This document shows, in pieces, positions 9,616-59,637 of a stretch of 64,000 nt of DNA. Source of the DNA: a virus. Position 1 is the first letter of the stretch, and the number at the start of each line of letters is the position of its first letter. The notes under the pieces were generated by a model. That model was not told the origin of the DNA and did not search any database. It saw only the letters and a program-made list of their open reading frames with translations. A program made the translations under genes and the position numbers. The DNA lies in the IMG/VR virus record IMGVR_UViG_3300032268_000986, positions 46,259-110,258 of that record. One strand, written 5' to 3'.

Positions 9616-10196
9616 CAGCCGTTGCGCTAGGATGCAGTCACACTGCCGGAGTTGGTGTTGACTCACAGCACTGCTATGTATCAGTGCTGGGCCAGCTGCT
9701 GAATACACATATTAAAAATCTAGGAGTACCTGGCGGAAATTGTTCACATGTACAACATACCCTGGTCGCTGAATTAAAATTATCTCAGCGGCCAGACTTT
9801 GTGATTGCACAATGGCCCAATCCTGTTAGACTCACTGTATGGCATGGCGACCAGGCCAGAAATGAAAATTTAAACCATGCCAGCCCGGCCTTTAAACAAC
9901 TACTGCGCACCGGCGAACAAAATTTTTATCAACCCTGGATTGCAGCCATTGTTGTGTGTAATTTGCTGTGCCAACAGGCAGGAGTACCAATAATAAACAT
10001 CATGATTGAAGATGTTGACTCTCAATATTACACTGTGCTAGCCCGTGAAAACATTGTGCTGCATGTGGACCGCAAACTGCCTGATCAAACTTGGTTAATG
10101 GACTCAGCAGCCAGTGACAATTTGCATCATTCAGCCCGTTGTCACCAACAATGGGCCAATCGATTACATGGATTATTAAATGAATATACCACATAA
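9612..10196 (+). CDS. SGNH-like hydrolase-fold protein (GCSHTAG motif family)
   Basis: ALGCSHTAGVG and NLGVPGGN blocks; paralogous to C-terminal domain of 27797-28771. Confidence 0.4.
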   Translation: MTAVALGCSHTAGVGVDSQHCYVSVLGQLLNTHIKNLGVPGGNCSHVQHTLVAELKLSQRPDFVIAQWPNPVRLTVWHGDQARNENLNHASPAFKQLLRTGEQNFYQPWIAAIVVCNLLCQQAGVPIINIMIEDVDSQYYTVLARENIVLHVDRKLPDQTWLMDSAASDNLHHSARCHQQWANRLHGLLNEYTT

Positions 10197-19120: not shown

Positions 19121-20192
19121 GCATGCCCAGGAGCTCTTGCCATAGTATCTTGGTCAGGCCACCGTTGTAGAAGTGATTGAAATTGTGTTCCACAATTTCA
19201 ACGCAGGCCTGGTGTATGCGTTGACGTTCTTCAACGCCTAGATTTTCTAGATGTTTCAACAACTGAGTGACCTTTTCCACTCGCAGTATGTCATCGGTTT
19301 CCAAGTCATAGCTCTCATCAAACACCGAGTCAAATGTGCGGAACCCATATTCTCGCATGTAGGCCAGGCTGCCAGCAGGAGCCACCAACACAAACGGCAT
19401 TTCCATGGCAATGGCCTTGAAGGTCTTTTCTGTGATGTGTGTGCGGCGTCCAAAGTACACAGTTTCAGTGGGCACGTATAGCAGGCTGTCGGCTGCTTCG
19501 TCGAAGTTTGTGAGCCAGCACGATGCCATTTGCTGAGTTTCTTCGCCGGGAAACAATTTAGGCAATGGCGCTGCCTCAAACACTTGCTCAATGTCGGGAT
19601 ATATGTTATTATACTTACGAGCTATCTCACTGATGTCGACACCTTCATAGGTGCAGGTCCTAGGAGCTGATATCCAGTTGTGATCCAGCCCATGTTTGAA
19701 TACATTATACAAGAACAACACACGATGATCACGCTTGCCGGCCACAATACGATTGGGACTCATAAAAGTCCGTGTGGGCTGCCGATCCCGTGCTCGAGGA
19801 ATCAAGAAACTCTTGTCGTAGCCTCGAAACCAATCCTGACAGGCCCAACCATGATAAAAATAGTAATGTGGTGTCCAACCGTACACCCGACACATTTCTT
19901 CCACATGCTCGCCCTTTTCGCTAACTACTACATGACCTGGCGGTTGAACCCAAATATCATCGTTGCGGCGAATCACATCTTGAAACAACGGTTTGTGCAA
20001 GTCCATGTGAACAGGTTCTTGGTCATGCATGAATATATAATCAATTTCACGCACGTCGTCTCCGCCGTAGTTGAACAAACTTTCAGGATCACTACGTCCC
20101 GGGGGATCGCAAAAAAATACTCTAGTGCCCGGAACATGTCGTTGGATCCAGGGCCAAAATGTGTTGTTGTAAATTTCGTCAATTCTAATCAT
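19101..20192 (-). CDS. glycosyltransferase-like protein, TEK-motif family (paralog 4)
   Basis: THITEKTFKAIAMEMPFVLVAPAGSLAYMREYGFRTFDSVFDESYD. Confidence 0.5.
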   Translation of the reverse strand: MIRIDEIYNNTFWPWIQRHVPGTRVFFCDPPGRSDPESLFNYGGDDVREIDYIFMHDQEPVHMDLHKPLFQDVIRRNDDIWVQPPGHVVVSEKGEHVEEMCRVYGWTPHYYFYHGWACQDWFRGYDKSFLIPRARDRQPTRTFMSPNRIVAGKRDHRVLFLYNVFKHGLDHNWISAPRTCTYEGVDISEIARKYNNIYPDIEQVFEAAPLPKLFPGEETQQMASCWLTNFDEAADSLLYVPTETVYFGRRTHITEKTFKAIAMEMPFVLVAPAGSLAYMREYGFRTFDSVFDESYDLETDDILRVEKVTQLLKHLENLGVEERQRIHQACVEIVEHNFNHFYNGGLTKILWQELLGMLDEFRV

Positions 20193-23100
20193 GTTTGATA
20201 TATTTTATATTGGTAAGAAACCAAATCTATTTGCGCACGAACAAGCTGTGGACAGTATTCAGCAGGCACAGCAACTGAGTCGCACACGTTTCTTCTGGAT
20301 AGTCAACTACTTAGCGGTGCTGGATCACTGGGACTTTCTTTGGGAGCCTGCACCATGGCAAGCGCATCAACGACATGCCTGGCCTGATCAACATCAGCCT
20401 GATTCAGGAGTGTATCTGGTGCCCCGCACCTGGGACGGTCAGGAAACCAATTATCATGTTCATCCCCGGGTGTGCCATCGCACAGATCCAGAGTTCTGGC
20501 ATGTACCAGACTGGATTGATCCTGCCAGCATTGACCAGACCTGGAGTCCAGATTCTGGCGCACCACCTTATATCTATGAGTTTCCCGTGGAATGGGGCTG
20601 GGACAGAGTGGGAGGTCCACAGTATTGCATGCCCGGTGCTACCAACATCAAGTACATGGACAACTTTGTTGCTCGCACACAGCACACAGCTCTGCCCTGG
20701 TATCAACACTGTGCAGTAGAGTGGACTGATGATGTGCAGCGTTGGAGACCCAATCCTGCAGATCCTCCCTACAACTATGTGTTTGGTAACCAATGGTATT
20801 CAGCTGAAGTCATGCCCACTGTGGAGTACCGCATGCCCGGTGCAGTGAGCAAAAAGTACATGGATCTTCAAGTACGACTGCCCGAACATCATGACAATCG
20901 CTGGCACACTCTGTATGACTGTGAATGGGACTACAGCTGGGTTCCTGATCCCGGTGACCCGCCTTACATCTATGTGTGGGGCAACCAGTGGTGGAGTGCT
21001 GAAATCATGCCCACTGTGGAGTATCATGTGCCCGGCGCCACTGAACGCAAGTACATGACCTGGCCAGCCCGGCTATGCAAAGATCGCACCAACTGGCAAG
21101 TGCCCAACGGGGTTGACATCAACAGCATAGACTTTAGCTGGCAGCCTGATCCCGGTGACCCGCCTTACATATATGAGTTTGCTACTCAGTGGCAACCCAC
21201 AGGCGGTGCTAGATATGTAGTACCCGGCGCCACTGAAGTCAAATATGTGGACATACAGCATCAACGACTGAGTGATCGCACCAACTGGCAGGTGCCCAAC
21301 GGGGTTGACATCAACAGCATAGACTTTTCCTGGCACCCAGATGTCACTGAGCAACCTTATATCTATGAGTTTGCTACTCAGTGGCAGTCCAACGGTGGCG
21401 CACAATACACAGTGCCCGGTGCAACTGAACGCAAGTATGTGGACATACAACACCGCAGGCTGGCTGATAGCACCAATTGGACTATTCCAGATTTTGTTGA
21501 TGTTGACAGCATAGACTTTAGCTGGCACCCGGATGCTACAGAGCAACCCTATATCTATGAGTTTGCTACACAGTGGCAACCCACGGGTGGTGCTAGATAT
21601 CATGTGCCGGGTGCGACTGAGCACAAGTATGTGGACATAGAACATCGTAGGCTGGCTGATAGCACCAATTGGACAATCCCAGATCTAGTTGATGCCAACA
21701 GCGTGGACACATCCTGGCATCCCGGCAATACAGAACAGCCCTATATCTATGAGTTTGCTACACAGTGGCAACCCACGGGTGGTGCTGTGTACACAGTACC
21801 AGGCGCAACAGAACGCAAGTATGTAGACATACAGCATCGTAGACTACCTGACAAAACTGCGTGGACACTGTTGGAGGCTGTTGCTAGTTTTGATTACTCA
21901 TGGCATCCGGACAACACTGAACCGCCTTACAACTATGTGTTTGGCAATCAGCACTGGCCGGCTACAGAAATGCCTACCACGGTGTACAAAATGCCAGACG
22001 CTGTGTCGGACAAGTTTGTGGATGTACTGGTTGCACGCCTGTGGGGTTGCATGGGCAACTGGGAGTTGTGTGAAGATATCGATGATGCCGCATGGGACTG
22101 GTCCTGGGTACCCAATCCCAAGGATCCACCTTACATCTATGTGTTTGGTAATCAATGGAATCCGCCTGAATTTAAAGCCAGTGTCAAATATCATGTGCCA
22201 GGTGCAACCGAAGTCAAATACATGGATCGTCGCACAACAAGATTGCCTCAACCGCAGTTGTTTGCACACAACATTGCTGTGAGCAAGTTTGATTACTCGT
22301 GGGAACCAAATCCATTTGATCCACCGATGACGTATGTGTTTGGCAATCAATGGAACTCGGCTGTGCTAGAACCCACTGTGGTATACAATGCCGGAGGCAC
22401 CGAAATCAAGTATGTGGATGACATCATTGCCACTGTGGCACAAGATGTCACTGCGTGGGAACTGCTAGACGATATTGAACAGTTTGATTACTCGTGGCGG
22501 CCCAATCCCAAGGATCCACCATATATCTATGTGTTTGGTAATCAATGGCTGCGCCCTGAACAACGTCCTGCTCTGAAATATCATGTCGCTGGTGCAACTG
22601 AAATCAAATACATGGATCACCCACAAGCTCGCCGCAGAGGTGATCACACAAGATTTCATCAGCACTGTGCTGTGGAGTTTGATTGGAGTTGGGAACCTGA
22701 TCCAGGTGCGCCGGTCTACAACTATGTGTTTGGTAATCAGTGGCATTCGGCTGAGATCATGCCCACAGTTGAATATCGCATGCCCGGTGCCACCGAACGC
22801 AAATACATGCATGAGCCAACAGCCAAGTTACCTGAGAACCCTAACCGACCTTGGTACAATGTAGTTGAAAGCGACATGGATTATTCTTGGGTACCTGACC
22901 CAGGAGACCCTCCATACATTTATGTGTTTGGTAATCAATGGCATGCTGCCGAAGTAATGCCCACTGTGGAGTATCGCATGCCCGGTGCCACCGAACGCAA
23001 ATACATGGACTCACCAGTTGCTGAATTGTCGGCGGACATGACACACTGGTATGTGCCCGAACATGTTGATGTAACTGACATGGACTTTAGTTGGCAGCCT

Positions 23101-24561
23101 GATCCAGGCGAACCAGCCTACATCTATCAGTTTGCCACACAGCACCAAAAGACTGGTGGACCACAATATCGCATGCCCGGTGCCACAGAGTTCAAGTACG
23201 TGGACATAATGCGAGCCGAAGTTAAACGGGAAGCTGTGCCCATCTTTGAAATTGATCACTTGGATGGTGCAGCCGGACAGATTCCAGACACAGTTCGACG
23301 AGTACGTTATTTTGACAACTACAGAGATACACTGATACGCTTGGCCAAGAGTCTTGTGGGAGAGTATGAGCATGTGTGGGTGTGTAGCAGCATCTGCGAC
23401 TACACCAACTTTGACTTCTCATGGCATCCCGAAACATGGCAGAGCACAATGTTGCATGTGTTTGCCAGTGATGAACAAAAGTTTGGAGACACATTCTACA
23501 TGCATGTTCCGACCTTTGCCAACCGTGCAGAAAAGAAACAGTTGTTGGAATGGTACAGTGTGAACTATGTACGTGGTCGATCAGTCCCTCGACGTCCTAT
23601 ACCAGTAATATGTCATGCACAAGACACGCATGTCAATGCAGTGATCAACAGTGATTTTGCAGGCCCTCTAGCACTGTTTACTACAGATACTGCAACAGTT
23701 GTGCCAACCGCAACGGTTGCTTTATGGAGAGCCGATACCAAGGCAATTACTCCTCTAACCAAGGGCGCAGTATCAGTGGTGGTGCCAAAGATAGCAGTAC
23801 CAAGCATCTGCACACAGTTATATGATTATTCCAACATTGACAAGTCAAAGATGACTCATCCAGGCCGGCCACATGATGTTATTTTTATCAGCAACGGGGA
23901 AAGCATGGCCGATGAGAATTGGCACCATCTCAAGTCAATGTGCAGTCGAGCCAAACGCAGTGACGGGGTAACCGGCCGAGAACGAGCATACAAAGCCGCA
24001 GCCACCATGAGTGAAACTCCATGGTTTTTTGCTGTGTTTGCCAAGACAGAAGTTCTGCCCAGTTTCAAGTTTGATTTTCAAGCTGACTTGATGCAGCAGC
24101 CCAAACATTATATTTTCCACAGTCGCAATCCCTTGAATGGTCTTGAGTATGGTGCCATGAACATTAACTTGTACAACCGGCAGTTGGTGCTAGACACCAA
24201 GCCGGGAATTGACTTTACTTTAAGTGCTGCTCACGACGTGGTGCCAATCTGTGCCAGTGTCAGTCGGTTCAATACCGACCCCTGGGTTACTTGGCGCAGT
24301 GCATTTAGAGAAGTATTAAAACTCAAACAAGAAGTTGACCAAGGCGCGGATGTGGAGATTCAGTACCGACTCAAAGTTTGGACCACAGTGGCTGTTGGAG
24401 AGAATGCCGATTGGTGTTTGCGTGGGAGCGAAGATGCATTGGAATATTATGCATCAGTCCTGGGTGACTACAACAAGTTGATGTTGAGTTTTGACTGGGC
24501 CTGGTTGCAAGAATACTACTACTCTAAATACCAGACTCAGCCTTGGTTAGAATCTGCCTAG
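20191..24561 (+). CDS. giant repeat protein (1456 aa): ~14 tandem ~64-aa repeats plus C-terminal degenerate GT-A-like domain
   Basis: repeat consensus W.PDxxDPPYIYVFGNQWxxAExMPTVEYRMPGATERKYMD; C-terminal region paralogous to 1293-2255 product. Confidence 0.75.
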   Translation: MFDIFYIGKKPNLFAHEQAVDSIQQAQQLSRTRFFWIVNYLAVLDHWDFLWEPAPWQAHQRHAWPDQHQPDSGVYLVPRTWDGQETNYHVHPRVCHRTDPEFWHVPDWIDPASIDQTWSPDSGAPPYIYEFPVEWGWDRVGGPQYCMPGATNIKYMDNFVARTQHTALPWYQHCAVEWTDDVQRWRPNPADPPYNYVFGNQWYSAEVMPTVEYRMPGAVSKKYMDLQVRLPEHHDNRWHTLYDCEWDYSWVPDPGDPPYIYVWGNQWWSAEIMPTVEYHVPGATERKYMTWPARLCKDRTNWQVPNGVDINSIDFSWQPDPGDPPYIYEFATQWQPTGGARYVVPGATEVKYVDIQHQRLSDRTNWQVPNGVDINSIDFSWHPDVTEQPYIYEFATQWQSNGGAQYTVPGATERKYVDIQHRRLADSTNWTIPDFVDVDSIDFSWHPDATEQPYIYEFATQWQPTGGARYHVPGATEHKYVDIEHRRLADSTNWTIPDLVDANSVDTSWHPGNTEQPYIYEFATQWQPTGGAVYTVPGATERKYVDIQHRRLPDKTAWTLLEAVASFDYSWHPDNTEPPYNYVFGNQHWPATEMPTTVYKMPDAVSDKFVDVLVARLWGCMGNWELCEDIDDAAWDWSWVPNPKDPPYIYVFGNQWNPPEFKASVKYHVPGATEVKYMDRRTTRLPQPQLFAHNIAVSKFDYSWEPNPFDPPMTYVFGNQWNSAVLEPTVVYNAGGTEIKYVDDIIATVAQDVTAWELLDDIEQFDYSWRPNPKDPPYIYVFGNQWLRPEQRPALKYHVAGATEIKYMDHPQARRRGDHTRFHQHCAVEFDWSWEPDPGAPVYNYVFGNQWHSAEIMPTVEYRMPGATERKYMHEPTAKLPENPNRPWYNVVESDMDYSWVPDPGDPPYIYVFGNQWHAAEVMPTVEYRMPGATERKYMDSPVAELSADMTHWYVPEHVDVTDMDFSWQPDPGEPAYIYQFATQHQKTGGPQYRMPGATEFKYVDIMRAEVKREAVPIFEIDHLDGAAGQIPDTVRRVRYFDNYRDTLIRLAKSLVGEYEHVWVCSSICDYTNFDFSWHPETWQSTMLHVFASDEQKFGDTFYMHVPTFANRAEKKQLLEWYSVNYVRGRSVPRRPIPVICHAQDTHVNAVINSDFAGPLALFTTDTATVVPTATVALWRADTKAITPLTKGAVSVVVPKIAVPSICTQLYDYSNIDKSKMTHPGRPHDVIFISNGESMADENWHHLKSMCSRAKRSDGVTGRERAYKAAATMSETPWFFAVFAKTEVLPSFKFDFQADLMQQPKHYIFHSRNPLNGLEYGAMNINLYNRQLVLDTKPGIDFTLSAAHDVVPICASVSRFNTDPWVTWRSAFREVLKLKQEVDQGADVEIQYRLKVWTTVAVGENADWCLRGSEDALEYYASVLGDYNKLMLSFDWAWLQEYYYSKYQTQPWLESA
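20560..23220 (+). repeat. in-frame tandem coding repeats (period ~192 bp); four near-identical copies at ~21069-21836
   Basis: agactgagtgatcgcaccaactggca(a/g)gtgcccaacggggttgacatcaacagcatagacttt recurs at 21069/21261; diverged copies through 23.2 kb. Confidence 0.8.
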
Positions 24562-34596: not shown

Positions 34597-34625
34597 CTAT
34601 GTGTATATTATAGCAAAATGGCGAA
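34597..34625 (-). promoter_or_regulatory. sigma70-type promoter TTGACC-N17-TATAAT + conserved AAAGGAG leader
   Basis: rc TTGACCgaaattcgccattttgcTATAAT; ~22-nt leader to ATG 34576. Confidence 0.65.
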
Positions 34626-34671
34626 TTTCGGTCAACCAAAAAAAGTGTTGTAAAAATGTAACACTTTAGTA

Positions 34672-36957: not shown

Positions 36958-36986
36958 ATTATAGCAAATTGTGAATAATTGGTCAA
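36958..36986 (-). promoter_or_regulatory. sigma70-type promoter TTGACC-N17-TATAAT
   Basis: rc TTGACCaattattcacaatttgcTATAAT. Confidence 0.65.
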
Positions 36987-37421: not shown

Positions 37422-37450
37422 ATTATAGCAAATTGGGAATTCCTGGTCAA
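37422..37450 (-). promoter_or_regulatory. sigma70-type promoter TTGACC-N17-TATAAT
   Basis: rc TTGACCaggaattcccaatttgcTATAAT. Confidence 0.65.
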
Positions 37451-37739: not shown

Positions 37740-37768
37740 ATTATAGCAAATTGGGCATTTCTGGTCAA
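37740..37768 (-). promoter_or_regulatory. sigma70-type promoter TTGACC-N17-TATAAT
   Basis: rc TTGACCagaaatgcccaatttgcTATAAT; leader nearly identical to 34561-34596. Confidence 0.65.
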
Positions 37769-38125: not shown

Positions 38126-38635
38126 TCATGATTTCACACGAGTGATAACACTGGCATGCTGCCACAACACACGATCACCACGGGTCATTACTTCCAACAA
38201 CAATCTCTTTTCTTCCAAGTATGTGCGAGCAAACTTTGCGTCATGCTCAACAATGCTTCTAGTGTTAGAGATCAAATCAGCCAACTTGACGGTCTGAGCC
38301 TCAGCCGGTGCTGCCGCTGTATGAGCACGATCAATGGCCTTGCGTGTGGTACGATTGCCTTGTTCAGGCCTTGACACATCGGTCAACCATCCCACCAATT
38401 CAGCAACCTTGTCACCAAATTCAGCACGAATTACTTCGTTGGTGACACCAGTGTCTTCGACTACATCATGCAACCAGGCCGCTGCCAACATCTCGGGAGT
38501 GTGATCCACTGTTGCAACAATGCCAGCAACTTCACGAGGGTGAACGATGTAAGGCTCCATGGTGTACTTGCGCAATTGAGCCACGGCCGAATGAGCCGCA
38601 GTGGCAAATATTCTAGCACGTTCAACTATTTCCAT
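38126..38635 (-). CDS. HD-domain hydrolase, RelA/SpoT-type (p)ppGpp hydrolase-like (small alarmone hydrolase)
   Basis: WLHDVVEDT HD motif; 169 aa. Confidence 0.75.
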   Translation of the reverse strand: MEIVERARIFATAAHSAVAQLRKYTMEPYIVHPREVAGIVATVDHTPEMLAAAWLHDVVEDTGVTNEVIRAEFGDKVAELVGWLTDVSRPEQGNRTTRKAIDRAHTAAAPAEAQTVKLADLISNTRSIVEHDAKFARTYLEEKRLLLEVMTRGDRVLWQHASVITRVKS

Positions 38636-38657: not shown

Positions 38658-38686
38658 ATTATAGCACATGAGCGAATTTCGGTCAA
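38658..38686 (-). promoter_or_regulatory. sigma70-type promoter TTGACC-N17-TATAAT upstream of HD hydrolase gene
   Basis: rc TTGACCgaaattcgctcatgtgcTATAAT. Confidence 0.65.
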
Positions 38687-39144
38687 GCGTACCAGATTTC
38701 ACTAAACCCTTCCTCGTGTGTGGGCATTTCAAAGTTCCATACCATGTCCCACAGCACAGCTTCGGGGATGACTTTGCCCGGCCGAGTCTTTAGTCTACGC
38801 TGATGTTCCTCTTCGTCTGGAGTCTGAAACACCACAGCAATGTGCTCATAGTCCGGCAACATGCGGAATTTACGCCTGCGGCTAGCAAAACTAGTTGACG
38901 TTTGATCCCAGATAATATCATGCCCGTGATTGCGAGCATGTACAACAACCTTGGACATTAGGTCCACTGCTGTGGGCATGTATTCTTCAAACACTTCTGA
39001 ATAAGTTTTGCCTTGAGCTCTAGCATAGTCTTCCACAAATGAATCTGTGCTGACCACAGTCAGTCCCAGAGCCCAGATTTGATTCTGGACCCAGGTACTC
39101 TTGCCCGATGCCGGAACTCCAATCAGTTGATAACATCTAGGCAT
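38683..39144 (-). CDS. P-loop kinase (polynucleotide kinase / zeta-toxin-like AAA domain)
   Basis: Walker A GVPASGKST. Confidence 0.6.
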   Translation of the reverse strand: MPRCYQLIGVPASGKSTWVQNQIWALGLTVVSTDSFVEDYARAQGKTYSEVFEEYMPTAVDLMSKVVVHARNHGHDIIWDQTSTSFASRRRKFRMLPDYEHIAVVFQTPDEEEHQRRLKTRPGKVIPEAVLWDMVWNFEMPTHEEGFSEIWYA

Positions 39145-39153
39145 ACACTCTCC

Positions 39154-39702
39154 TCAATAGTGAGATCGAATCTCACCCTTTAATGCATCTGCAATCAATC
39201 GGTCCATGTCACTGGCCACACATCCTGTGGCATCAAATGCCACATCTCTAGCACGATATTTTTCCAGGCCAGTTTTGTTGCCATGCACATGACCATAGAA
39301 GTGTACTGATCCACGATGCATTTGGTCCCATTCCCAGATGGGATAGTGAAACATTATCACCAACTGACCATTGTGAACATAACGCAGATACTGATGTGTT
39401 TCACGAAAACATTCCCGGAATTTTTGATCCTTGATCAGCTTGGCATCATGATTACCTTCAATCAAAATCTTGTCACCATTGAGTCGTTGCAGTATTGACA
39501 CTGCTCGTTCCGCGTTACAAAATGCAACATCACCAAGAATAAACGTTTGATCACCAGGATGCACAATCTGATTCCATTCTTGAATCAAACATTCATTCAT
39601 GTGATCTACATCTCGAAACCCAGCACGAGTCACAGGACAAAACTTCATGATGTTGGTGTGTCCAAAATGTAGATCACTTGTGATATAGGTCTTCATCATT
39701 TC
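39154..39702 (-). CDS. calcineurin-like metallophosphoesterase
   Basis: DLHFGH, GDVAF, GNHD motifs; ORF open to 39741. Confidence 0.75.
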   Translation of the reverse strand, partial: EMMKTYITSDLHFGHTNIMKFCPVTRAGFRDVDHMNECLIQEWNQIVHPGDQTFILGDVAFCNAERAVSILQRLNGDKILIEGNHDAKLIKDQKFRECFRETHQYLRYVHNGQLVIMFHYPIWEWDQMHRGSVHFYGHVHGNKTGLEKYRARDVAFDATGCVASDMDRLIADALKGEIRSHY

Positions 39703-39706
39703 CTTT

Positions 39707-40174
39707 TTAATAATTGTTTTTAAATGTGCGCCAATCATCAATGTTGGGCTTTTCTTGTTCGTCGTATGTCCAACCCAGGGCCTTCATCATGCTATGCTTG
39801 ACCATCAAGTTTGGACTACGAAAACGCTTGGTATCATCAAAGCCCATCATGACACCAACCTCGGTCACTGCACCCGACCGGCAAATACCTGCCATGCAAT
39901 GCACGACCACGTTCATGCGATTGTCTAGCGCATGTTTTAACAAACTAACAATCTCCTGAGCCTGTGCATCACTGATCTTGGCATCGTCGGGAAAGATGTC
40001 AGACTTTTCGGCATCAAGAAATTCAAACCGATGTGTTTCTTTGAAGTCATGGGCTGGAGTGGGCCACCAACTGGGTGCAGGATCCATGATCTGAATCAGC
40101 ATGCTATTCGCACCAGCATCGTGATGGAACTTCATGGGCACATCAGCGGCGGCTACGTTTTCAATCCAGGGCAT
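39707..40174 (-). CDS. protein tyrosine / dual-specificity phosphatase
   Basis: CX5R active site HCMAGICRSGA. Confidence 0.7.
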   Translation of the reverse strand: MPWIENVAAADVPMKFHHDAGANSMLIQIMDPAPSWWPTPAHDFKETHRFEFLDAEKSDIFPDDAKISDAQAQEIVSLLKHALDNRMNVVVHCMAGICRSGAVTEVGVMMGFDDTKRFRSPNLMVKHSMMKALGWTYDEQEKPNIDDWRTFKNNY

Positions 40175-40194: not shown

Positions 40195-40223
40195 ATTATA
40201 ACACAAAGGAGATTTTTGGTCAA
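40195..40223 (-). promoter_or_regulatory. sigma70-type promoter TTGACC-N17-TATAAT upstream of phosphatase gene
   Basis: rc TTGACCaaaaatctcctttgtgtTATAAT. Confidence 0.65.
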
Positions 40224-41008
40224 GTGTCTTTGTGATGATTAGAGTGTGTGACCAGCCATGCTCGTAACCCGTCAACTGAGTTGAGTTCACGATTCATCTG
40301 GTGCCAGTTCTCTAGTACTTTTGTTTGGCCAGTGGTGGCCCACTCGGCTACTCCAGCAAGACCAGTTTCGTTGCCCCGACGAATGCCATAGTTGAAGTGC
40401 AAACTCTCGCGAGCAAATCCCGGCGGCACCATTCGAGTCTTGTGCAGTTTACGATAACGATTGTCGTTGATGTAACCCCAGTTTCTACGGAACGGCACAG
40501 TGTAGTATTCATTGTCGTCAACTGCCACTGGCAGCGAGTTACCCTGCTCGTCAAACCCTTCATTCACAGTGCTGTTGATCTCTTCTTCCAGCACAAACTG
40601 TGTGCCCAATTCTGGCATGTCAACATCTGACAGATAAACCTGAACATTCATGGCCCACTCGGCAGCGTCAAAGTGCGGGTAAAAGTTAGCCCCGCTGAGA
40701 TCAAGATAACCGCGGCATGTGGCCAAACTCAACCGCTCACCAGTGAGTTCTTCCAGATAAGGGATCAAGGCAGATCCAAACAGTATAGCATCCAGCCAGT
40801 GGTTGTTTTCCATCACAAGACGGTTTGGATACCGGCTGCTCCACAGGCTTTCAGTTCTACGAAAATTGTTCTTGATTCTGGTCAACCACTCGTCGTTTAG
40901 GAAGTTTTCCAACTGCCACAGGGTGGGGCAAACTGATCGCTTGTTGTCCCAGTTGAACATGGTGTTCTCTGGATAAGTTAAATTTGGGGGATAAATGGGT
41001 TCTGACAT
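40220..41008 (-). CDS. hypothetical protein (possible 2OG-Fe(II) oxygenase-like, YPHFD)
   Basis: 262-aa ORF; HxD-like YPHFDAAE. Confidence 0.4.
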   Translation of the reverse strand: MSEPIYPPNLTYPENTMFNWDNKRSVCPTLWQLENFLNDEWLTRIKNNFRRTESLWSSRYPNRLVMENNHWLDAILFGSALIPYLEELTGERLSLATCRGYLDLSGANFYPHFDAAEWAMNVQVYLSDVDMPELGTQFVLEEEINSTVNEGFDEQGNSLPVAVDDNEYYTVPFRRNWGYINDNRYRKLHKTRMVPPGFARESLHFNYGIRRGNETGLAGVAEWATTGQTKVLENWHQMNRELNSVDGLRAWLVTHSNHHKDT

Positions 41009-41012
41009 GTGC

Positions 41013-41264
41013 TTATTTACGATAGGTGCGACGACGTGGTGCCGGCTCTACCACTTTGGTAAGGTACTCGTTGCCAACTTTGCCTTGCTCAATTTCCAAC
41101 AATGCAGTGAGAATGGGACCATGCTTGGAAGTGACTCGGGGCATGTCTCCACGAGACAGTTCTCGAATTCGATTGCTGGCAATCAGCACCAGATTGTATC
41201 GATTGCCCACCATGGCCACTGCGTCTTCACTGGTGAGACCAAGAGTTTGAATGTTAGAGTTCAT
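41013..41264 (-). CDS. rpoZ: RNA polymerase omega subunit (RpoZ) homolog
   Basis: MVGNRYNLVLIASNRIRELSRG...ILTALLEIEQGKV aligns with bacterial RpoZ GNRFDLVLVAARRARQ...ALREIEEG. Confidence 0.6.
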   Translation of the reverse strand: MNSNIQTLGLTSEDAVAMVGNRYNLVLIASNRIRELSRGDMPRVTSKHGPILTALLEIEQGKVGNEYLTKVVEPAPRRRTYRK

Positions 41265-41292
41265 GTATGTCCTTGTGAGTTACAAAGTATTT

Positions 41293-41321
41293 ATTATACA
41301 CAACTTGTTGATTAAACACAA
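41293..41321 (-). promoter_or_regulatory. weaker sigma70-like promoter TTGTGT-N17-TATAAT upstream of rpoZ-like gene
   Basis: rc TTGTGTttaatcaacaagttgtgTATAAT. Confidence 0.35.
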
Positions 41322-41350: not shown

Positions 41351-41836
41351 ATGCCCATGCTACGTTTCTATATCGAATACCATTGGGGGCGACGTCGCCC
41401 AAATTTGGAATTTTACATGAACAACCAACAGCTATCCCCGCAACTGATCTGGTGTGATCGTGTGCTGCCTCATCAAGAAAACATCATACTTGAAACCACG
41501 TGCGAATTGGCAAAGCACAATCAATTGCAGGTGGTCATGCGGGACAAGACTGATCATGATCTAGTGTTTGAAGATTCTGGCATGATTGATCACTGGGCCA
41601 AGATACAGGAAGTTGAAATTGATGGCATTCTGGCACAGACGGCATTGTACTTTTGTTCCAACTTTCGTCATGCCATGAGCAGTGATTGGGTGGAACACAT
41701 GCGTCAACAAGGGCACACAATTGAACCAGTGTATGCCGGGGGAACTGACATTAGACTCAATGGCGCATGGACCATGAATTTTAGCACCCCGGTATGGGAG
41801 TGGTATGTTAACAACTATGAACAAACTAACAGCTGA
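41351..41836 (+). CDS. hypothetical protein (161 aa)
   Basis: ORF. Confidence 0.45.
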   Translation: MPMLRFYIEYHWGRRRPNLEFYMNNQQLSPQLIWCDRVLPHQENIILETTCELAKHNQLQVVMRDKTDHDLVFEDSGMIDHWAKIQEVEIDGILAQTALYFCSNFRHAMSSDWVEHMRQQGHTIEPVYAGGTDIRLNGAWTMNFSTPVWEWYVNNYEQTNS

Positions 41837-42539
41837 TTTTTTTGCCGCCGAGTTTCCTAGATATCAAGTGCCGGGCACTTATGAAAATGCCGTTGCAACT
41901 TTTTGGCAAAACACCAAGATACCCTTTGTCGAACTTGACCTTGACCTGGACATGGACTCCACATACCAATGGTGTGTCAACAACTCAGATAATTTTGATC
42001 TAGCATGGAACCAAAGAAAATGGAATCAACACAATCAACACCAGGGTTCTACATGGTTCAAACGACCACACAGTGAACACCGGTATGATTTAGAAATTCA
42101 AGGAAAACGTTTTGCCAGTAAAGTTGACTCGGCTACCAATCTCACTAGAATTGCCAGGCCCGATGGCGCAACTGATTTGCAAATTCAATTGAAAAAATTA
42201 GGAATTGAATATTCTTCTCTCAAACTGGCTAGATTGGATCCAGGTGGGTACCTTGAACCCCACAAGGACGCATTTCAAGACCCTGACTGTTTGTCTCATG
42301 TATGGATTCCCATACACAGCTCTGAGGCCGAGTTAAAAATTTATCCCTGGGGCAAACTGCCACATCGCGTGGGATGTGTATATTTGCTGAACAATCAATC
42401 TTTTATTCACAGCATTGTCAACACATCTACTCAACCAAGATTTGTTGCCACCATGCGCTTGATTGTAGACACTGTGCCTGAAAGTATTTGGAACTTGATA
42501 AAGCATCAAGTTCAACATCAATGGTTTGACCATGGTTAA
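41805..42539 (+). CDS. 2OG-Fe(II) oxygenase-like (aspartyl/asparaginyl hydroxylase-type cupin)
   Basis: GGYLEPHKD HxD motif, second His in HVWIPIH. Confidence 0.55.
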   Translation: MLTTMNKLTADFFAAEFPRYQVPGTYENAVATFWQNTKIPFVELDLDLDMDSTYQWCVNNSDNFDLAWNQRKWNQHNQHQGSTWFKRPHSEHRYDLEIQGKRFASKVDSATNLTRIARPDGATDLQIQLKKLGIEYSSLKLARLDPGGYLEPHKDAFQDPDCLSHVWIPIHSSEAELKIYPWGKLPHRVGCVYLLNNQSFIHSIVNTSTQPRFVATMRLIVDTVPESIWNLIKHQVQHQWFDHG

Positions 42540-43045
42540 CTGTTGAGAACCTTGGCCACTGAATTCATAACACTGGCGATACGTCCAATGTCACGAAGTT
42601 GTTCCACTGTGTATCCTTCTGAGTTCTTTAGTGTGTCATAGTGTGCCTTCACACAGAAATGACATTTGCCAACAATACTTGCTGCCAAACTAAATGCTTC
42701 AAAGTTGGCCTTGGTAGTTCCGCCATGTGACGCAATAGCGTTCATGCGCAACTGTGCTGGCAATCCTTTCAATGCAGGATCTTCAGCCATCTCAACATAG
42801 GGATACCAAACATTGTTCTGTGCCATAATTGAAGCGGCTGTCATTGCAGATTCTGAATGCACTGGAGCATCTGCCAACAGCACTGCAAGTACCCGGCCGT
42901 TGCCGGTTGCAGCCAACGCGGCCACAGCACAGCCCATGGCCACATCTGCATCCAGTGTGCTACGTAATAACACAGCATCAAGATTTAACTTGGTGTCCTT
43001 GGCATAGTCAGGCAGTGCGCCCTTGATTGATTCAATAAAACTCAT
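42536..43045 (-). CDS. AhpD-like / carboxymuconolactone decarboxylase family protein
   Basis: GKCHFCVKAH matches CMD/AhpD CxxC..H motif. Confidence 0.65.
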   Translation of the reverse strand: MSFIESIKGALPDYAKDTKLNLDAVLLRSTLDADVAMGCAVAALAATGNGRVLAVLLADAPVHSESAMTAASIMAQNNVWYPYVEMAEDPALKGLPAQLRMNAIASHGGTTKANFEAFSLAASIVGKCHFCVKAHYDTLKNSEGYTVEQLRDIGRIASVMNSVAKVLNS

Positions 43046-43452
43046 CGGGTCTGTTCTCCTAAAATTTTATACCCGCGACCAGTGGGGTGAACACCGTCGG
43101 CACTCATATGATTCTTTGGACGTGGAAGAATGGTGTCTCCGTATTCTTTGGCAATCTGAACAATTGCCTCATGTGGAATAGGTTTACGATCCTGCCCTGG
43201 ATCAATCCAAAAAACTCGAGCTGTGGTTCCGATCTTCTCACGAACACGTTGCAACTCTGCCTTTGTCCTAACGCCTTTGTGATCATTGGCACCTAGACTA
43301 ATGATGACCGTTTTTGCAGATAAATCATTTTTCAAATAGTCTTTATTCCATTGCCATGTGTTCCAGCCGCCTTTGGAATAACTTACACATTCTGGTCTAG
43401 CCTGATGTATGCCCACAGCAATGCTATCGCCTAGTATTAAACATTCTAACAT
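43042..43452 (-). CDS. SGNH/GDSL hydrolase
   Basis: MLECLILGDSIAVGI block I. Confidence 0.55.
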   Translation of the reverse strand: MLECLILGDSIAVGIHQARPECVSYSKGGWNTWQWNKDYLKNDLSAKTVIISLGANDHKGVRTKAELQRVREKIGTTARVFWIDPGQDRKPIPHEAIVQIAKEYGDTILPRPKNHMSADGVHPTGRGYKILGEQTR

Positions 43453-43453
43453 T

Positions 43454-43909
43454 TTATGCTACCTCATCTTTTTTATCACTGGGGAATTTTGCACTGGTGT
43501 ATCGGATAACCAGTACACTGATGGCAATAACAAATGTGGACCCGGACACCGCCAGCATTTCACTAATGTTAATAGGCTGATGACTCATGATGTCTACCAT
43601 GTGTCGGGTCAATGCCGTTATTGCTATGTAAAGTAGAAACCTAACAGGCATATGGTTGGTTTTAAAATAAATTCCAACCATGGCCCCTATTTCTAAATAG
43701 ATAAACATCAGCAATAGGTCGCCAACTGTGGCATGGTGTTTCTGGAACATTTCAAAAAATGTCCATCCTGCGGCCCATACTGTTGCGGCGCCTATGCCAA
43801 AAAGTGCCAATCGATGGAATATATCAACTAGTGTATTTCCAACTCGATCAACATTTTTTGTGTCTAACATTACAGTGTCTCGCCACCAACTGTGCGGTTG
43901 CATGCACAA
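43454..43909 (-). CDS. PsiE-like inner-membrane protein
   Basis: 151 aa, 4 predicted TM helices; size/topology like phosphate-starvation-inducible PsiE. Confidence 0.4.
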   Translation of the reverse strand: MCMQPHSWWRDTVMLDTKNVDRVGNTLVDIFHRLALFGIGAATVWAAGWTFFEMFQKHHATVGDLLLMFIYLEIGAMVGIYFKTNHMPVRFLLYIAITALTRHMVDIMSHQPINISEMLAVSGSTFVIAISVLVIRYTSAKFPSDKKDEVA

Positions 43910-44475
43910 AGTTCGCCAGTTTGCAATGCGTCAAGAACACGGAGTGTTTCTTCTGGGCTACGACCCACGTTCAAGTTGTTGACAGTGACGTGTTGGATAA
44001 CGTTGTCTGGGTCAACAATGAATGTGGCACGAAGTGCGGCACCTGCTGGAGCATAGAACACGCCCAGTTGTTCGATCAAACTTACGCCACCGCGCTCTTC
44101 ACCGGGTTGGTGACGAGCAGTGTCAGCAAACTGGTGATGTGTGATCTTACGCAAGTCATCGTGGCTCTTTTGCCATGCTACCTTGCAGAACTCGTTGTCT
44201 GTTGATCCTGTGAGCAACACTGCATCACGATCCGCAAAGTCCTGTGCCAGTTTGTCATAGGCCACAATTTCTGTGGGGCAAACAAATGTGAAGTCTTTGG
44301 GGTAGTATACAATTACTTTCCACTTGCCAGGGAAGCTGGTTGCAGTGATGTCATAAAATGCATCATCAGGTTGTCCAGGCTTGACGCCTGTGATTGTGAA
44401 CGGGGTCAATTTATCGCCAACTGTTTTCATAATTTCTCCTTGTGCTTGAAAACCAATAACTCTCAGTATAAACAC
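43870..44475 (-). CDS. peroxiredoxin (AhpC/TSA, 2-Cys type)
   Basis: FTFVCPTEI peroxidatic Cys motif. Confidence 0.85.
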   Translation of the reverse strand: MFILRVIGFQAQGEIMKTVGDKLTPFTITGVKPGQPDDAFYDITATSFPGKWKVIVYYPKDFTFVCPTEIVAYDKLAQDFADRDAVLLTGSTDNEFCKVAWQKSHDDLRKITHHQFADTARHQPGEERGGVSLIEQLGVFYAPAGAALRATFIVDPDNVIQHVTVNNLNVGRSPEETLRVLDALQTGELCACNRTVGGETL

Positions 44476-54722: not shown

Positions 54723-55799
54723 TCAGAGATCCAACAACACATGATGCTCGCTCACGCTGCCGATGTAGTCACACCGAACTTGGCTCTGGTTGAACCAACC
54801 AGGGTGCTGGTGTTGCAATAGGTCACAGTAGGCTTCAAACTTTGCCAATGTGGTTTGACCCTGGGAACTCAGCGCACAGTTATTGATCAACAGCAGTTCC
54901 TTGCGGTCAAATTGCCAGTCATGTTGATGTGACACTGTGCCATTGATTCTTGGAAACCCCCACTTTTTATCCAGGCAGTTTCCTGGTGTGGGGAACCCCA
55001 AGGCAGCTTTGATGTCAAGCCCCTGCACTCCCTGTTGCGCAAGATCATGTAGGCCGTATGCATACGCAAACGCTAGGTTAGGGTTGCGTTGGTCACAGAA
55101 AAAGTGAATCATGCGAGGAGTCATGAAATTCAAATTGAACCGGTTGTCCATCCAGTAAAATTTGTTGCCATCTAACACTGGCATGGCAGCACCACCAACA
55201 TTGACATAATTATCTTGTTGTAGATGTGGATAACACTCAATGGCCTGCAACGGGTTAGTGGTGCATGGGCGCAGTGTTTTGTGTCGCAACCACCGATGTT
55301 CTACATCTTCCATGTACCAAGCATAGTGCTCGGGCAAGATATCATAGTACACCACTTGAGCTCGACTGCGGTATTGTTGCAGAGTCTTGGCCAGCACGGA
55401 CCTAAAGGGAAACACATCAATTTCTATATTGACATACTCATCCACAGCACCAGGGAATCTACGATACACTGCAATTTCATCAACATCTGCCCCAGTTTCT
55501 AAAAATGCCATCAGGGCAGCATGACTGTCCATGCCACCGCTGTACCACAGGCGTATGCGACTGTGATGATCACGTATGAGTTGGGCCTGATCCAAGCACA
55601 GTTGCCAAAAAGTTTTTTGCGGTCGTAATCCGGCTAGGCTGTGGGACCAAACACGAAACCCCGGTGCGGCATGCCCCAGTTCTTGAGCTTTTCTCAGCGC
55701 ATCAATCTTGCTGTGTCCATGCCATGTGCTCACATGGTAATGAGGTCCTGTGTAGCCCTGCCCTGGATCAATCTTTTCTGTGACTTTTACTGGTGTCAT
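54723..55799 (-). CDS. PP-loop ATP pyrophosphatase-family enzyme (QueC/TilS/asparagine synthetase-like)
   Basis: SGGMDS PP-loop motif at ~aa 88. Confidence 0.6.
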   Translation of the reverse strand: MTPVKVTEKIDPGQGYTGPHYHVSTWHGHSKIDALRKAQELGHAAPGFRVWSHSLAGLRPQKTFWQLCLDQAQLIRDHHSRIRLWYSGGMDSHAALMAFLETGADVDEIAVYRRFPGAVDEYVNIEIDVFPFRSVLAKTLQQYRSRAQVVYYDILPEHYAWYMEDVEHRWLRHKTLRPCTTNPLQAIECYPHLQQDNYVNVGGAAMPVLDGNKFYWMDNRFNLNFMTPRMIHFFCDQRNPNLAFAYAYGLHDLAQQGVQGLDIKAALGFPTPGNCLDKKWGFPRINGTVSHQHDWQFDRKELLLINNCALSSQGQTTLAKFEAYCDLLQHQHPGWFNQSQVRCDYIGSVSEHHVLLDL

Positions 55800-57097
55800 G
55801 AGTATAGTTGAATCAATCGATTCGTTATGCCATTGAGTTGATTTTCTAACAGCAGCACCAGCACCAAGGGCATGAAATCCACTCGACGAGCTGTAATCCA
55901 GCCCACTGCACCACTGGCTGCAAACACCAGCATGTAGTACAGAGTCTGATCGCTACGCCAGCCCTGATACATCACAGTGGCAGTCAACAGCACAATCAAC
56001 ACTGATACTATGGCATTGTAGTACTGTTGGAACCAGCTCAGTAATTGTTTTACCACTGACGAGCACACCCAGGCCACAACAGCACATCCGATCAGTAAAC
56101 TTGCAGTTACCAGGCCCACCATGTTCCAGTCAAGATTGGTGGCACGCCACCCATGACTGGCCAAGATATCCAATATCACCAACTCACTGGGCTGTACCGC
56201 TAGGCCCAACAACACAAACGGAATCAGGCTTGAAACCTGGCTGGCATTGTTGGCAGCTTCTGCAGCCGTGAGACGAGACAGACTGTCTGTGAGATGCGGT
56301 TGTTTGCGAAATCTTGATTCCACAGAGTGTGCCAAATTGGATGTGATGATACCGCCCACGTATGGCACAAGCCCACACACAAATCCCACTGCACTGCCGC
56401 GCAGTGCAGATAGCCAGGCAAACGATCTTTGCGTGTGACCATTGATGTCAATGGGCATGCCCATGGGGGATTGCTGGTGCTTGATCAACAGCATGGTGGG
56501 CACTGCATACACTCCCAGTATCACCGGGGTAATTGGTATGCCTCCGGCCAAGTACACATTGCCCAGAGTCAAAAAGTCCTGACCAGTCTGCATGTTGTGT
56601 CCTACTGCGCCTATAATCCAGCCCAGTGCAATCAACCCAAGATTTATCATGGCTCTGTTGCCGGGCCATGCAGTGACAAATGTCAGTGTGACAAACAACA
56701 ACACTGCCATGACTTCGGTTCTAAACAGCATGGGCCAGGCCTGTCCTTGGTGCAAGCAAATCAACATTGCGGAGAGACTCGCTGCCATGCCAATCAAGCT
56801 GGCTCGGGCAGTGTCTTTCAATGCTTGCTGGATAGCATTGTGACCAATAATGATATTGCGTTCACGCAAGGCAGGTGCAGATGTTACTTCACCTAGAGTG
56901 CCAAAGCACAGCGCAGCCACTGATCCTGAAAAGTCTCGAGCCGAAATCATCACAGCGTAAAATGCAATCAACACAGCCGGACTCATCATGTTCAGCATGG
57001 GATACAGTATCAACAACATAAACACCGGACCCAGACCAGGCATGAGCCCTACCAAGATTCCAATGGCTGGTGCCAACAGCAACAACAGCAGTTCCAT
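55796..57097 (-). CDS. TctA-like tripartite tricarboxylate transporter large permease
   Basis: ~12 TM segments; GLMPGLGPV resembles TctA LPG(I/L)GP motif. Confidence 0.55.
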   Translation of the reverse strand: MELLLLLLAPAIGILVGLMPGLGPVFMLLILYPMLNMMSPAVLIAFYAVMISARDFSGSVAALCFGTLGEVTSAPALRERNIIIGHNAIQQALKDTARASLIGMAASLSAMLICLHQGQAWPMLFRTEVMAVLLFVTLTFVTAWPGNRAMINLGLIALGWIIGAVGHNMQTGQDFLTLGNVYLAGGIPITPVILGVYAVPTMLLIKHQQSPMGMPIDINGHTQRSFAWLSALRGSAVGFVCGLVPYVGGIITSNLAHSVESRFRKQPHLTDSLSRLTAAEAANNASQVSSLIPFVLLGLAVQPSELVILDILASHGWRATNLDWNMVGLVTASLLIGCAVVAWVCSSVVKQLLSWFQQYYNAIVSVLIVLLTATVMYQGWRSDQTLYYMLVFAASGAVGWITARRVDFMPLVLVLLLENQLNGITNRLIQLYS

Positions 57098-58780: not shown

Positions 58781-58810
58781 ATTATATATGCAACTGCATG
58801 TTGCAGTCAA
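58781..58810 (-). promoter_or_regulatory. candidate promoter TTGACT-N18-TATAAT upstream of OMP gene
   Basis: rc TTGACTgcaacatgcagttgcataTATAAT. Confidence 0.4.
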
Positions 58811-58850
58811 GAAGAAAGGTCAGATTAACTGACCTTTCTGGTGGTTTCTG
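58811..58850. terminator. hairpin terminator candidate
   Basis: 10-bp stem gaaaggtcag/ctgacctttc, loop attaa, T-rich flanks. Confidence 0.4.
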
Positions 58851-59637
58851 TTACGAGGTATTTCCTACCCTAAGCAGTGTTTAGGCTGCTAATGCGAACT
58901 GTGAGTCGTTTGCGTTTACTTTTTTGCTTGATTAACGGTCATCGCCTACCGTGCTGTCCACTCTGTTACTTGTTGCCCTGTCGAAACTATGCAGGCCCAT
59001 CATAAAGAAACTTCTTCAAATCTAGATGCCAAAAGCACAATACGCAAACCGGCATCTGTTTGAATTACTACTCCATTACCCATGGTATAGACAATATCAT
59101 AGTCTTTGCCAATTGTTAGTTCCTTATGCACAGCTTTAACATCAGGTAATGATTTAAGTATCATAAACTTCCTTATGGTGGACCTGGGGGGATTCGCACC
59201 CCCGTCCAGAACACTGTTCTCATCACTTCATACAGCAATAACTTTTAGATCTGCACCACGGTCCATTTGGTTGTAAATGGTTTGCCTTCGGCCTTGTGTT
59301 TCAGTATCTTCGCAAACTCTTTTTCACGGAGTTTGGCAATGGTTTCTGTATCGTGGTCGAAGCAAGCCTTGTACAAACGAGAAACCAATTTCTTTTGTTT
59401 CATAGCTTACCCCTCCTTGACAATTATTTATGCAAATTATACAGCATTGTCTGTTGGTTTGTCAACCGCCAATTTGGTCACAATGTCATACACTTGAGAG
59501 TACACGTTGGTGATTTTGTCCAGTTGTTCGTCACTGACTTGTGTTTCAAAATACACTAGATCTCGTGCTAGATTTTCTTGTAGCTGTTTGAGTTGATTTT
59601 GGTCATGCATGGCAGTATCCTGTTGGGATACTGTTAT

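Follow-up and report, generated by a model that had tools for sequence, protein, structure and literature searches.

Phages are known to control the RNA polymerase (RNAP) of their hosts through small proteins of novel fold, through covalent modification, or by encoding polymerases of their own. T4 AsiA and T7 Gp2 are phage proteins that bind host RNAP, and the nucleocytoplasmic large DNA viruses (NCLDVs) encode Rpb6/omega homologs as part of a complete viral RNA polymerase. P23-45 gp39 (PMC3950348) and Xp10 P7 (PMC6624301) are described as small early phage proteins that alter host RNAP. Here we describe an 83-residue homolog of the omega subunit (RpoZ) of bacterial RNAP, encoded in a 64-kb stretch of jumbo-phage DNA (positions 46,259 to 110,258 of IMG/VR record IMGVR_UViG_3300032268_000986; hereafter the window, whose numbering is used throughout). 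AsiA, Gp2, gp39 and P7 have novel folds and sit atop the enzyme, whereas the phage omega is a homolog of a core subunit and would take the place of that subunit. The Rpb6 proteins of NCLDVs resemble it in being virus-encoded and of the same superfamily, but they belong to eukaryotic viruses with a full polymerase; no viral catalytic subunits were seen among the large open reading frames (ORFs) of the window that were scanned, and its promoters are of the host type. Control through a virus-encoded core subunit would thus differ as a tactic from the known forms of phage RNAP manipulation.

The stringent response, which is signaled through the alarmones guanosine tetraphosphate and pentaphosphate ((p)ppGpp), can restrict phage growth, and phages counter it (PMC13483052, PMC7824862). 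Phage alarmone hydrolases such as that of SSU5, and the T7 portal protein Gp8, share with the phage omega the proposed goal of neutralized (p)ppGpp signaling. The SSU5 hydrolase and Gp8 act on the level of the alarmone, by degradation and by synthetase inhibition, whereas the phage omega, which has no homology to these factors, would target RNAP, the receptor of the alarmone. The phosphates of ppGpp are coordinated by omega residues 2-5, and RNAP containing an omega without these residues binds ppGpp no better than background, with a Kd of >100 μM (PMC7676912). R3 of omega faces the 5′ diphosphate of ppGpp and R52 the 3′ diphosphate (bioRxiv 10.1101/188680), and the MAR motif of omega predicts whether the RNAP of a species binds ppGpp at site 1 (PMC6912228). 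An engineered Escherichia coli omega that lacks residues 2-5 still assembles and gives a site-1-null RNAP (PMC7676912), an effect that is predicted for the phage omega as well. The engineered form is a laboratory deletion, whereas the phage omega extends and substitutes the N-terminus and also changes R52. The point of interest in the phage protein is therefore what the copy has lost. While the RpoZ family is known, a phage omega devoid of the ppGpp contacts is undescribed in the literature that we searched. Our preferred reading, to which we assign a probability of about 0.45, is that the phage combines a ppGpp-blind replacement omega with an alarmone hydrolase against the stringent response of its host.

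Identification of the phage omega homolog

The features of the omega gene are as follows.

41013..41264 (including the stop codon), minus strand: rpoZ-like gene for the 83-residue phage omega homolog, identified by ORF, hidden Markov model (HMM), PDB, fold and dN/dS (nonsynonymous to synonymous substitution ratio) analyses
41270..41274, minus strand: Shine-Dalgarno sequence AAGGA, 5 nucleotides 5′ of the omega ATG, read from the sequence
40995..41315, plus strand: antisense ORF of 106 residues, which spans the whole omega gene and exceeds it in size

An initial annotation, made from the sequence alone, had proposed an 83-residue RpoZ homolog at 41013-41264. We found the ORF as described, on the minus strand, and no start codon other than its ATG precedes the first conserved helix. 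The product, MNSNIQTLGLTSEDAVAMVGNRYNLVLIASNRIRELSRGDMPRVTSKHGPILTALLEIEQGKVGNEYLTKVVEPAPRRRTYRK, matches PF01192 (RNA_pol_Rpb6) with 43.4 bits (gathering cut-off 26, E 3.5e-11) through residues 16-63, which span model positions 3-51 and thus cover 49 of the 53, and the NCBIfam rpoZ equivalog TIGR00690 with 31.7 bits against a cut-off of 23.6. The HMM search that the annotation had named as a check therefore passed both cut-offs, while the threshold of the narrower equivalog NF001579 was missed (24.2 versus 58). In the HMMER alignment with E. coli omega (E 2e-7), phage residues 10-68 correspond to omega residues 4-64, a range that contains both of the RpoZ blocks claimed as conserved. All 23 distinct PDB chains matched by sequence search were RNA polymerase omega.

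The AlphaFold2 model of the phage omega, computed with 24 family members as input, had a mean pLDDT (predicted local distance difference test) of 76.9, with values below 50 at residues 1-6, and contained four helices (13-19, 22-38, 50-59 and 65-68). When this model was compared with the PDB by Foldseek, the top 50 matches were exclusively omega chains, with probabilities of 0.82-1.00 and TM-scores, normalized to the target chain, of 0.43-0.70 (0.56-0.70 in the top 20); the best matches had a root-mean-square deviation of about 2.4 Å over 58 residues. Thus, the similarity extends over nearly the entire family model and the fold, and is not confined to one low-complexity helix, the outcome that the annotation had named as counting against an omega.

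Pairwise dN/dS values of the omega frame against its relatives ranged from 0.13 to 0.25, indicating purifying selection on the gene. We rejected the antisense ORF as spurious, because the substitution patterns fit the omega frame; naive longest-ORF gene calling would pick it over omega. We regard it as virtually certain that the ORF at 41013..41264 is a genuine RpoZ/omega homolog.

Loss of the residues that contact ppGpp at site 1

Three parts of the gene bear on the comparison with cellular omegas.

41238..41264, minus strand: codons 1-9, the extension MNSNIQT plus L8-G9, in place of proteobacterial M1-A2-R3
41097..41099, minus strand: Leu codon 56, aligned with R52 of E. coli omega, the residue that makes the second contact to the ppGpp phosphates
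41013..41051, minus strand: codons 72-83 and stop, a short basic C-terminal tail, VEPAPRRRTYRK, whose PRRR is conserved in the close clade

The phage protein belongs to the same family as E. coli omega (PDB 4JK1) by HMM and fold, is of similar size and keeps the motifs GNR(F/Y)xLVLxAxxRxR and ALxEIExG; it differs in its N-terminal extension, in the absence of MAR, in the replacement of R3 and R52 and in a loop that is two residues shorter. We compared conservation per position (in E. coli numbering) between 70 unique phage omegas and 84 cellular ones, 67 of the gamma type and 17 of the beta type. In the cellular set, 28 positions reach a conservation of at least 90%. N15, R16, L19, L21, A23, R26, R28, L51, E53, I54 and G57, all present in the window protein, are kept at a frequency of at least 0.9 in the phage set, as is G34, and together they form the family's helical core; M1, A2, R3, V6, D8, A27, N43, K45 and R52 are lost.

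The sequence MARVTV starts all 67 gammaproteobacterial omegas, exactly 13 residues ahead of GNRF, and in the set examined every correctly called beta-type omega has both MAR and R52. The window omega starts with MNSNIQTLGLTSEDAV (MNSNIQTLGLT) and has no MAR; HMMER maps its L8 to A2, G9 to R3, L10 to V4 and L56 to R52. R52 itself is found in 100% of the cellular omegas and in 10% of the phage ones. By this comparison, the site-1 contact appears lost at the N-terminus of the window omega, where the MAR position would be buried under a 6-residue extension. Since G9 replaces R3, L56 replaces R52 and MAR is buried, an RNAP carrying the phage omega should lack ppGpp site 1. Taken together with the published contacts, the residue comparison suggests that the phage omega kept the core that defines the family and lost the part that serves as ppGpp receptor.

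The two losses co-vary among the 70 phage omegas: R52 is present in 7 of the 8 proteins with MAR and in 0 of the 62 without it. On a rough tree each of the two characters changes about 20 times, indicating that the loss was not a single event. Glycine occupies the R3 position in 43 of the 70 proteins and is conserved in the clade of the window, where its fixation argues for selection rather than drift.

These data have to be weighed against plain supply, in which the phage tops up omega for RNAP assembly, stability, processivity or sigma-70 preference during host shut-off, and the ppGpp residues went missing as a side effect of relaxed constraint. Supply would account for a beta-prime-binding core that is conserved under purifying selection, for those phage omegas that retain MAR and R52, as the family is not defined by ppGpp blindness, and for the sigma-70 type of every phage promoter found. 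It would also fit the described roles of omega, which is reported to act as an assembly chaperone, to modulate the competition of sigma factors and, according to a preprint from 2026, to stabilize the transcribing enzyme (PMC5811629, PMC7700224, PMC13192885). However, the gain from an additional supply is not obvious for a dispensable subunit of a long-lived enzyme, and drift alone leaves the joint loss of R3 and R52, the fixed glycine and the linkage to a hydrolase unexplained. Based on these considerations, we find plain supply rather unlikely.

The C-termini differ as well. Gammaproteobacterial omegas carry a long acidic tail and the phage copy a basic PRRR tail, with median isoelectric points of 4.5 and 10.1 for the gammaproteobacterial and phage sets, respectively. 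We considered the basic charge as a phage-specific novelty and dropped the idea, because the beta-type cellular omegas are likewise short and basic; the PRRR extension is the only clade-specific feature left after the charge comparison. The beta type, the closest cellular type in the HMMER search, also shares the ending GxVGxE(M/Y)LxK with the phage protein, but it has MAR and R52, whereas the phage clade lacks both and adds the PRRR tail.

A predicted alarmone hydrolase in the same gene block

38126..38635, minus strand: small alarmone hydrolase of 169 residues, a stand-alone SpoT/RelA-type HD domain (PF13328 HD_4, 63.2 bits; phrog_990)

This gene lies 2.4 kb downstream of omega in the same early block. 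Its product matches only the hydrolase part of TIGR00691 (positions 4-122 of 687) and of the SpoT model NF008303, with the motifs HP, HD, ED and KLADxxxN intact and no synthetase domain, and is a predicted (p)ppGpp hydrolase. Among the 109 related viral loci that were compared, many of which are truncated by contig ends, the HD_4 hydrolase is present in 28, and the gene order after omega is conserved. Homologs of the hydrolase occur in 237 cultured phage records.

In bacterial loci, spoT directly follows rpoZ in 78 of 80 cases. The chromosomal gmk-rpoZ-spoT neighborhood is absent at the window omega, whose neighbors are phage genes. In view of the bacterial gene order, the phage reproduces the pairing of omega with a ppGpp hydrolase, using a hydrolase-only enzyme.

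Promoters and the polymerase that reads them

32369-63017, minus strand: 12 promoter sites, for example 34607-34635, 36958-36986, 37422-37450, 37740-37768, 38658-38686 and 40195-40223
40195..40223, minus strand: near-consensus sigma-70 promoter TTGACC-N17-TATAAT, upstream of a phosphatase gene
38658..38686, minus strand: sigma-70 promoter, near-consensus and with an extended -10, upstream of the hydrolase gene
41293..41321, minus strand: candidate omega promoter TTGTGT-17 nucleotides-TATAAT, with a perfect -10 and a weak -35, inferred and under the threshold of the scan

The initial annotation had placed omega in an early-promoter region, and the dense set of consensus sigma-70-type promoters around the omega block agrees with this. 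A scan of the window for TTGAC-N18-TATAAT found 12 sites against a chance expectation of 0.04, each of them on the gene strand (minus). The 12 sites are near-identical and have the form TTGAC(C)-N-TTTGCTATAAT followed by an A/T-rich discriminator of the ATACACATAG type; 7 of them have an extended -10, 8 fall within 32.3-40.3 kb, and the omega block itself contains two. The candidate promoter of omega itself is not among the sites of the consensus scan. The 12 sites resemble a family of early phage promoters for the sigma-70 RNAP of the host, and consensus promoters of this kind would be the signature of early genes read by the unmodified host sigma-70 holoenzyme. Because of these 12 near-consensus promoters, we conclude that the phage transcribes with host RNAP. 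The notion that the phage promoters are of the stringent type and need shielding from ppGpp was considered and dropped, since the discriminators are A/T-rich in 12 of 12.

The promoters also bear on the possibility that omega is a subunit of a multisubunit RNAP encoded elsewhere in the genome of approximately 343 kb, of which the window shows 19%. Phage RNAP subunits are far more distant from their cellular counterparts than the 41-49% identity that relates the phage omega to proteobacterial omegas, and a window rich in consensus host sigma-70 promoters likewise speaks against such an enzyme. Some jumbo phages do encode their own multisubunit RNAPs (PMC12619734). However, the nearest cultured jumbo phages (PA5oct, Phosso, Atu_ph07, SCTP-2 and RsoM2USA) are outside the nucleus-forming group, and no RNAP-subunit-like ORF was found among the large window ORFs scanned. 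In a scan of IMG/VR viral contigs for the catalytic motif NADFDGD, at least 120 contigs were found, mostly in giant-virus bins, and none of the 80 of these that were listed is an omega-bearing contig. A phage-encoded polymerase as the partner of this omega is thus very improbable.

Proposed mechanism

The initial annotation had suggested that a viral omega could remodel or stabilize host RNAP. This suggestion agrees with the evidence, and the lost site-1 residues and the ppGpp hydrolase in the same block make it more specific. In the anti-stringent reading, omega would be made early in infection, from host-type promoters, and would occupy the position of omega on host beta-prime, either in newly made enzyme or by outcompeting the host omega. 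Such occupancy is feasible given the intact helical core, the hallmark of omega, and the phage omega probably binds host RNAP. The hydrolase would then destroy the alarmone, while omega would deafen the polymerase to ppGpp; together, the two would blunt the stringent response and prevent the infected cell from entering the stringent state, linking a polymerase-level and an alarmone-level countermeasure.

Several points weigh against this reading. In E. coli, omega binds tightly and can be dispensed with, and the association of the phage protein with beta-prime is suggested by conservation of the core. The presence of site 1 in the RNAP of the presumably proteobacterial host is assumed, and ppGpp site 2 (with DksA) would remain. 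The discriminators of the phage promoters are A/T-rich, unlike those of the classic ppGpp-inhibited type, which makes a direct gain for phage transcription uncertain. Relaxed constraint, and not selection, could underlie the residue losses, and the Fisher p value of 7e-9 for the MAR/R52 co-variation ignores shared ancestry. Our view covers 64 kb of about 343 kb, with a multisubunit RNAP elsewhere being, as argued above, a very small risk. Finally, about 11% of the phage omegas (8 of 70) retain MAR, 7 of them together with R52, and therefore the family as a whole cannot have ppGpp blindness as its function. This minority looks competent for site 1, and blindness would characterize most members, the clade of the window among them, but not all.

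If the anti-stringent reading is true, this would be the first phage to reprogram host RNAP by substitution of a homologous subunit, not by an added foreign binder, and a small protein that makes RNAP insensitive at site 1 would be a tool to uncouple transcription from starvation signaling. The phage omegas, most without both arginines and a minority with both, form a natural mutational series for ppGpp site 1, which is useful in view of the long debate over what omega does. The broader proposition, that a widespread family of uncultivated jumbo phages swaps a core subunit of the host for an alarmone-deaf copy, with the phrog_4499 protein described below acting alongside it in many lineages, is possible but, in our estimate, somewhat doubtful.

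Distribution and origin of the omega family

In IMG/VR, we found 28 close relatives of the window omega and, with a broader profile, at least 535 stretches that carry the family, several of which belong to contigs of 200-524 kb. Seven independent contigs (JGI, ENA, Logan), the longest of 342,865 bp, carry an omega protein identical to that of the window together with the same phage neighbors, and on one related omega-bearing IMG/VR contig the genes for a T4-type gp32-like single-stranded DNA-binding protein and UvsX adjoin omega.

HMMER against 1.84 billion representatives yielded 305 proteins at E ≤0.001. The best-ranked of the 305 are diverse small basic omega-like proteins, which interleave with the IMG/VR copies in clustering. 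They are followed by cellular matches, first short basic omegas of the beta type (about 46-48% identity, E ~1e-8) and then those of the gamma type, with representatives in the same range of 46-48%. We take the short basic 67-residue omega MARITVEDCL..PNRFQLVLAATYRARM..GKVGLEMLKKVPG to be of the betaproteobacterial type. In GTDB genomes, the best cellular omegas were 41-49% identical, in a scan biased to the gamma type because its pattern, [GE]NR[YF][ND]L[VI]L, left out the beta-type omegas (PNRFQLVL). We had considered Gammaproteobacteria as the nearest cellular relatives, and dropped this because the excluded beta-type omegas score at least equally; the host can be called only as proteobacterial. 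As the cellular omegas are distant and the IMG/VR copies diverse, the phage omegas appear to be an old, diversified lineage, not a recent capture.

The family is large and known only from uncultivated phages. A tblastn search of 50,697 GenBank phage records, with two divergent family members as queries, found no omega beyond 8-9 matches that are bacterial sequence or lie in unverified or unannotated records. Two of these matches were examined and rejected: the one in CAKLQH020000003.1 ('Acinetobacter phage MD-2021a') lies on a piece of bacterial chromosome with pilW, ispH, gmk, rpoZ and spoT, and the one in MG065691.1 (unverified Campylobacter phage A11a), a record with no annotation, is of the enterobacterial type. 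PHROGs holds no family for omega, and no description of a phage-encoded omega was found in the literature searched, jumbo-phage surveys included; one such survey names an alarmone hydrolase, but not omega (PMC7824862). The IMG pipeline automatically labels members of the phage family as omega. That the family has gone unexamined in spite of these labels is attributable to its absence from cultured phage genomes and PHROGs.

One omega of 58% identity lies on a 23-kb contig (NZ_JBBAKG010000090.1) filed under a metagenome-assembled genome of Haliscomenobacter sp. This contig carries the phage synteny (AhpC, CMD, omega, phosphatase, MoxR, DUF2201) and is probably a phage contig misbinned into a bacterial genome.

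The idea that the window omega is a bacterial contaminant, a product of chimeric assembly or a freshly captured host gene in decay would fit the fact that the omega matches in GenBank phage records are bacterial contamination only. It is refuted by the recurrence of the identical protein on independent contigs, by the at least 535 IMG/VR stretches with their conserved synteny, by purifying selection and by the distance of the nearest cellular omega (at most 49% identity), and can practically be dismissed.

A candidate partner of omega and the genes around it

Related loci, minus the window itself (examples: L005 981-1268, L007 5695-5982, L010 3669-3983, L013 6063-6365, and 49 others): phrog_4499, a Cys-rich, basic protein of 95-104 residues

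In 53 of the 109 related loci, the gene of phrog_4499 ends exactly at the start codon of omega. Its conserved sequence reads ...HAMNCGDPRCMMCGNPRK...RLFQD...RHSNG, and its product is a candidate partner of the phage omega; if this is true, the partner would be translationally coupled to omega in many lineages. The gene is absent from the window.

The same arrangement enters into a further explanation, in which the phage omega docks on host RNAP and offers its N-terminal extension and basic C-terminal tail as an attachment point to a phage regulator or to nucleic acid, which would steer the enzyme toward phage genes. Both the extension and the conserved PRRR tail are clade-specific, a gene that ends at the omega start is what would be expected of a partner, and the regulator of a phage-like gene transfer agent is reported to act through binding to omega (PMC9638019). 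However, the lineage of the window has no phrog_4499 gene, the tail and the extension were modeled with low confidence and contain no detectable motif, and a DNA-binding domain is absent from the phage omega. Basicity alone is not new either, given the beta-type cellular omegas. An adaptor role is, in our judgment, decidedly unlikely.

The genes that surround omega in the window are listed below.

40220..41008, minus strand: protein of 262 residues, starting 4 nucleotides after the omega stop; in 9 of the 109 related loci, closest relatives only
39707..40174, minus strand: Cys-based dual-specificity/protein tyrosine phosphatase-type phosphatase with the P-loop HCMAGICRSG (PF22785, 28.7 bits; phrog_5614)
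39154..39741, minus strand: calcineurin-type metallophosphoesterase (phrog_547, E 5.5e-51; PF12850 weak); in 70 of the 109 loci
38683..39144, minus strand: AAA_33 P-loop kinase, polynucleotide-kinase-like (PF13671, 72.2 bits; phrog_6931, phrog_505); in 48 of the 109 loci
41351-41836 and 41805-42539, plus strand: two flanking ORFs with no family match, like the 262-residue ORF in closest relatives only
42536-43045, minus strand: CMD/AhpD-like protein, upstream of omega
43042-43452, minus strand: GDSL-type hydrolase, upstream of omega
43454-43909, minus strand: PsiE phosphate-starvation protein, upstream of omega
43870-44475, minus strand: AhpC peroxiredoxin, upstream of omega

The phosphatase and kinase neighbors claimed in the initial annotation were recovered as the Cys-type phosphatase, the metallophosphoesterase and the AAA_33 kinase. 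The match of the Cys-type phosphatase to PF00782 is under the cut-off, and this gene follows omega in 57 of the 109 related loci. The gene of 262 residues is probably co-transcribed with omega; its product has no Pfam, NCBIfam, PHROG or PDB match, and by eye an H-x-D motif with a later His is suggestive of a 2-oxoglutarate-dependent oxygenase. In other lineages, a gene for S-adenosylhomocysteine hydrolase (PF05221, E 1e-129) lies directly after omega (L007 6267-7553, L028 10237-11523), and hence the slot after omega is variable. We therefore rejected the immediate downstream neighbor as a conserved partner, the 262-residue gene being restricted to its clade. The flanking ORF of 244 residues has a weak match to Asp/Arg-hydroxylase (cupin). 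The host-like stress cluster at 42536-44475 lies beside omega in many relatives as well.

Phage context and other features of the window

20191-24561, plus strand: ORF of 1456 residues with no family match, similar only to a hypothetical protein of the Ralstonia jumbo phage RsoM2USA
44782-62980, minus strand: array of 33 tRNA genes for most amino acids, several with a consensus sigma-70 promoter ahead
58790-59268: permuted two-piece transfer-messenger RNA (tmRNA) with the tag ANDSQFALAA (Rfam tmRNA_permuted, 135.9 bits)

The window is jumbo-phage DNA from a genome of approximately 343 kb. No capsid or terminase gene was found within the 64 kb, and the viral assignment therefore rests on several lines combined. 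The window contains 33 tRNA genes and a tmRNA, together with many small ORFs and PHROG-typed genes. Its MoxR-type ATPase is nearest, among cultured phages, to the Pseudomonas PA5oct group (50%), followed by Sinorhizobium Phosso, Agrobacterium Atu_ph07 and Salicola SCTP-2, and the ORF of 1456 residues shares 36% identity with the RsoM2USA protein over the last 220 residues and no other similarity. By these two proteins, the nearest cultured phages are jumbo phages that do not belong to the nucleus-forming group. The phage origin that the initial annotation had assumed is thus borne out by the tRNA genes and tmRNA, the PHROG neighbors, the jumbo-phage matches and the IMG/VR relatives (28, then 535).

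The two-piece tmRNA may give a hint at the host lineage; as a pointer to the host, however, the permuted form does not settle the lineage. On the plus strand, a run of at least five proteins with radical S-adenosylmethionine domains (4036-13662) is followed by a Nol-like carbamoyltransferase (14793-16268; phrog_1601, E 9e-91), and the two may form a pathway for the modification of nucleotides, sugars or peptides. A membrane subunit of a TctA-family tripartite tricarboxylate transporter is encoded on the minus strand (55796-57097; PF01970, E 5e-45), which is unusual cargo for a phage.

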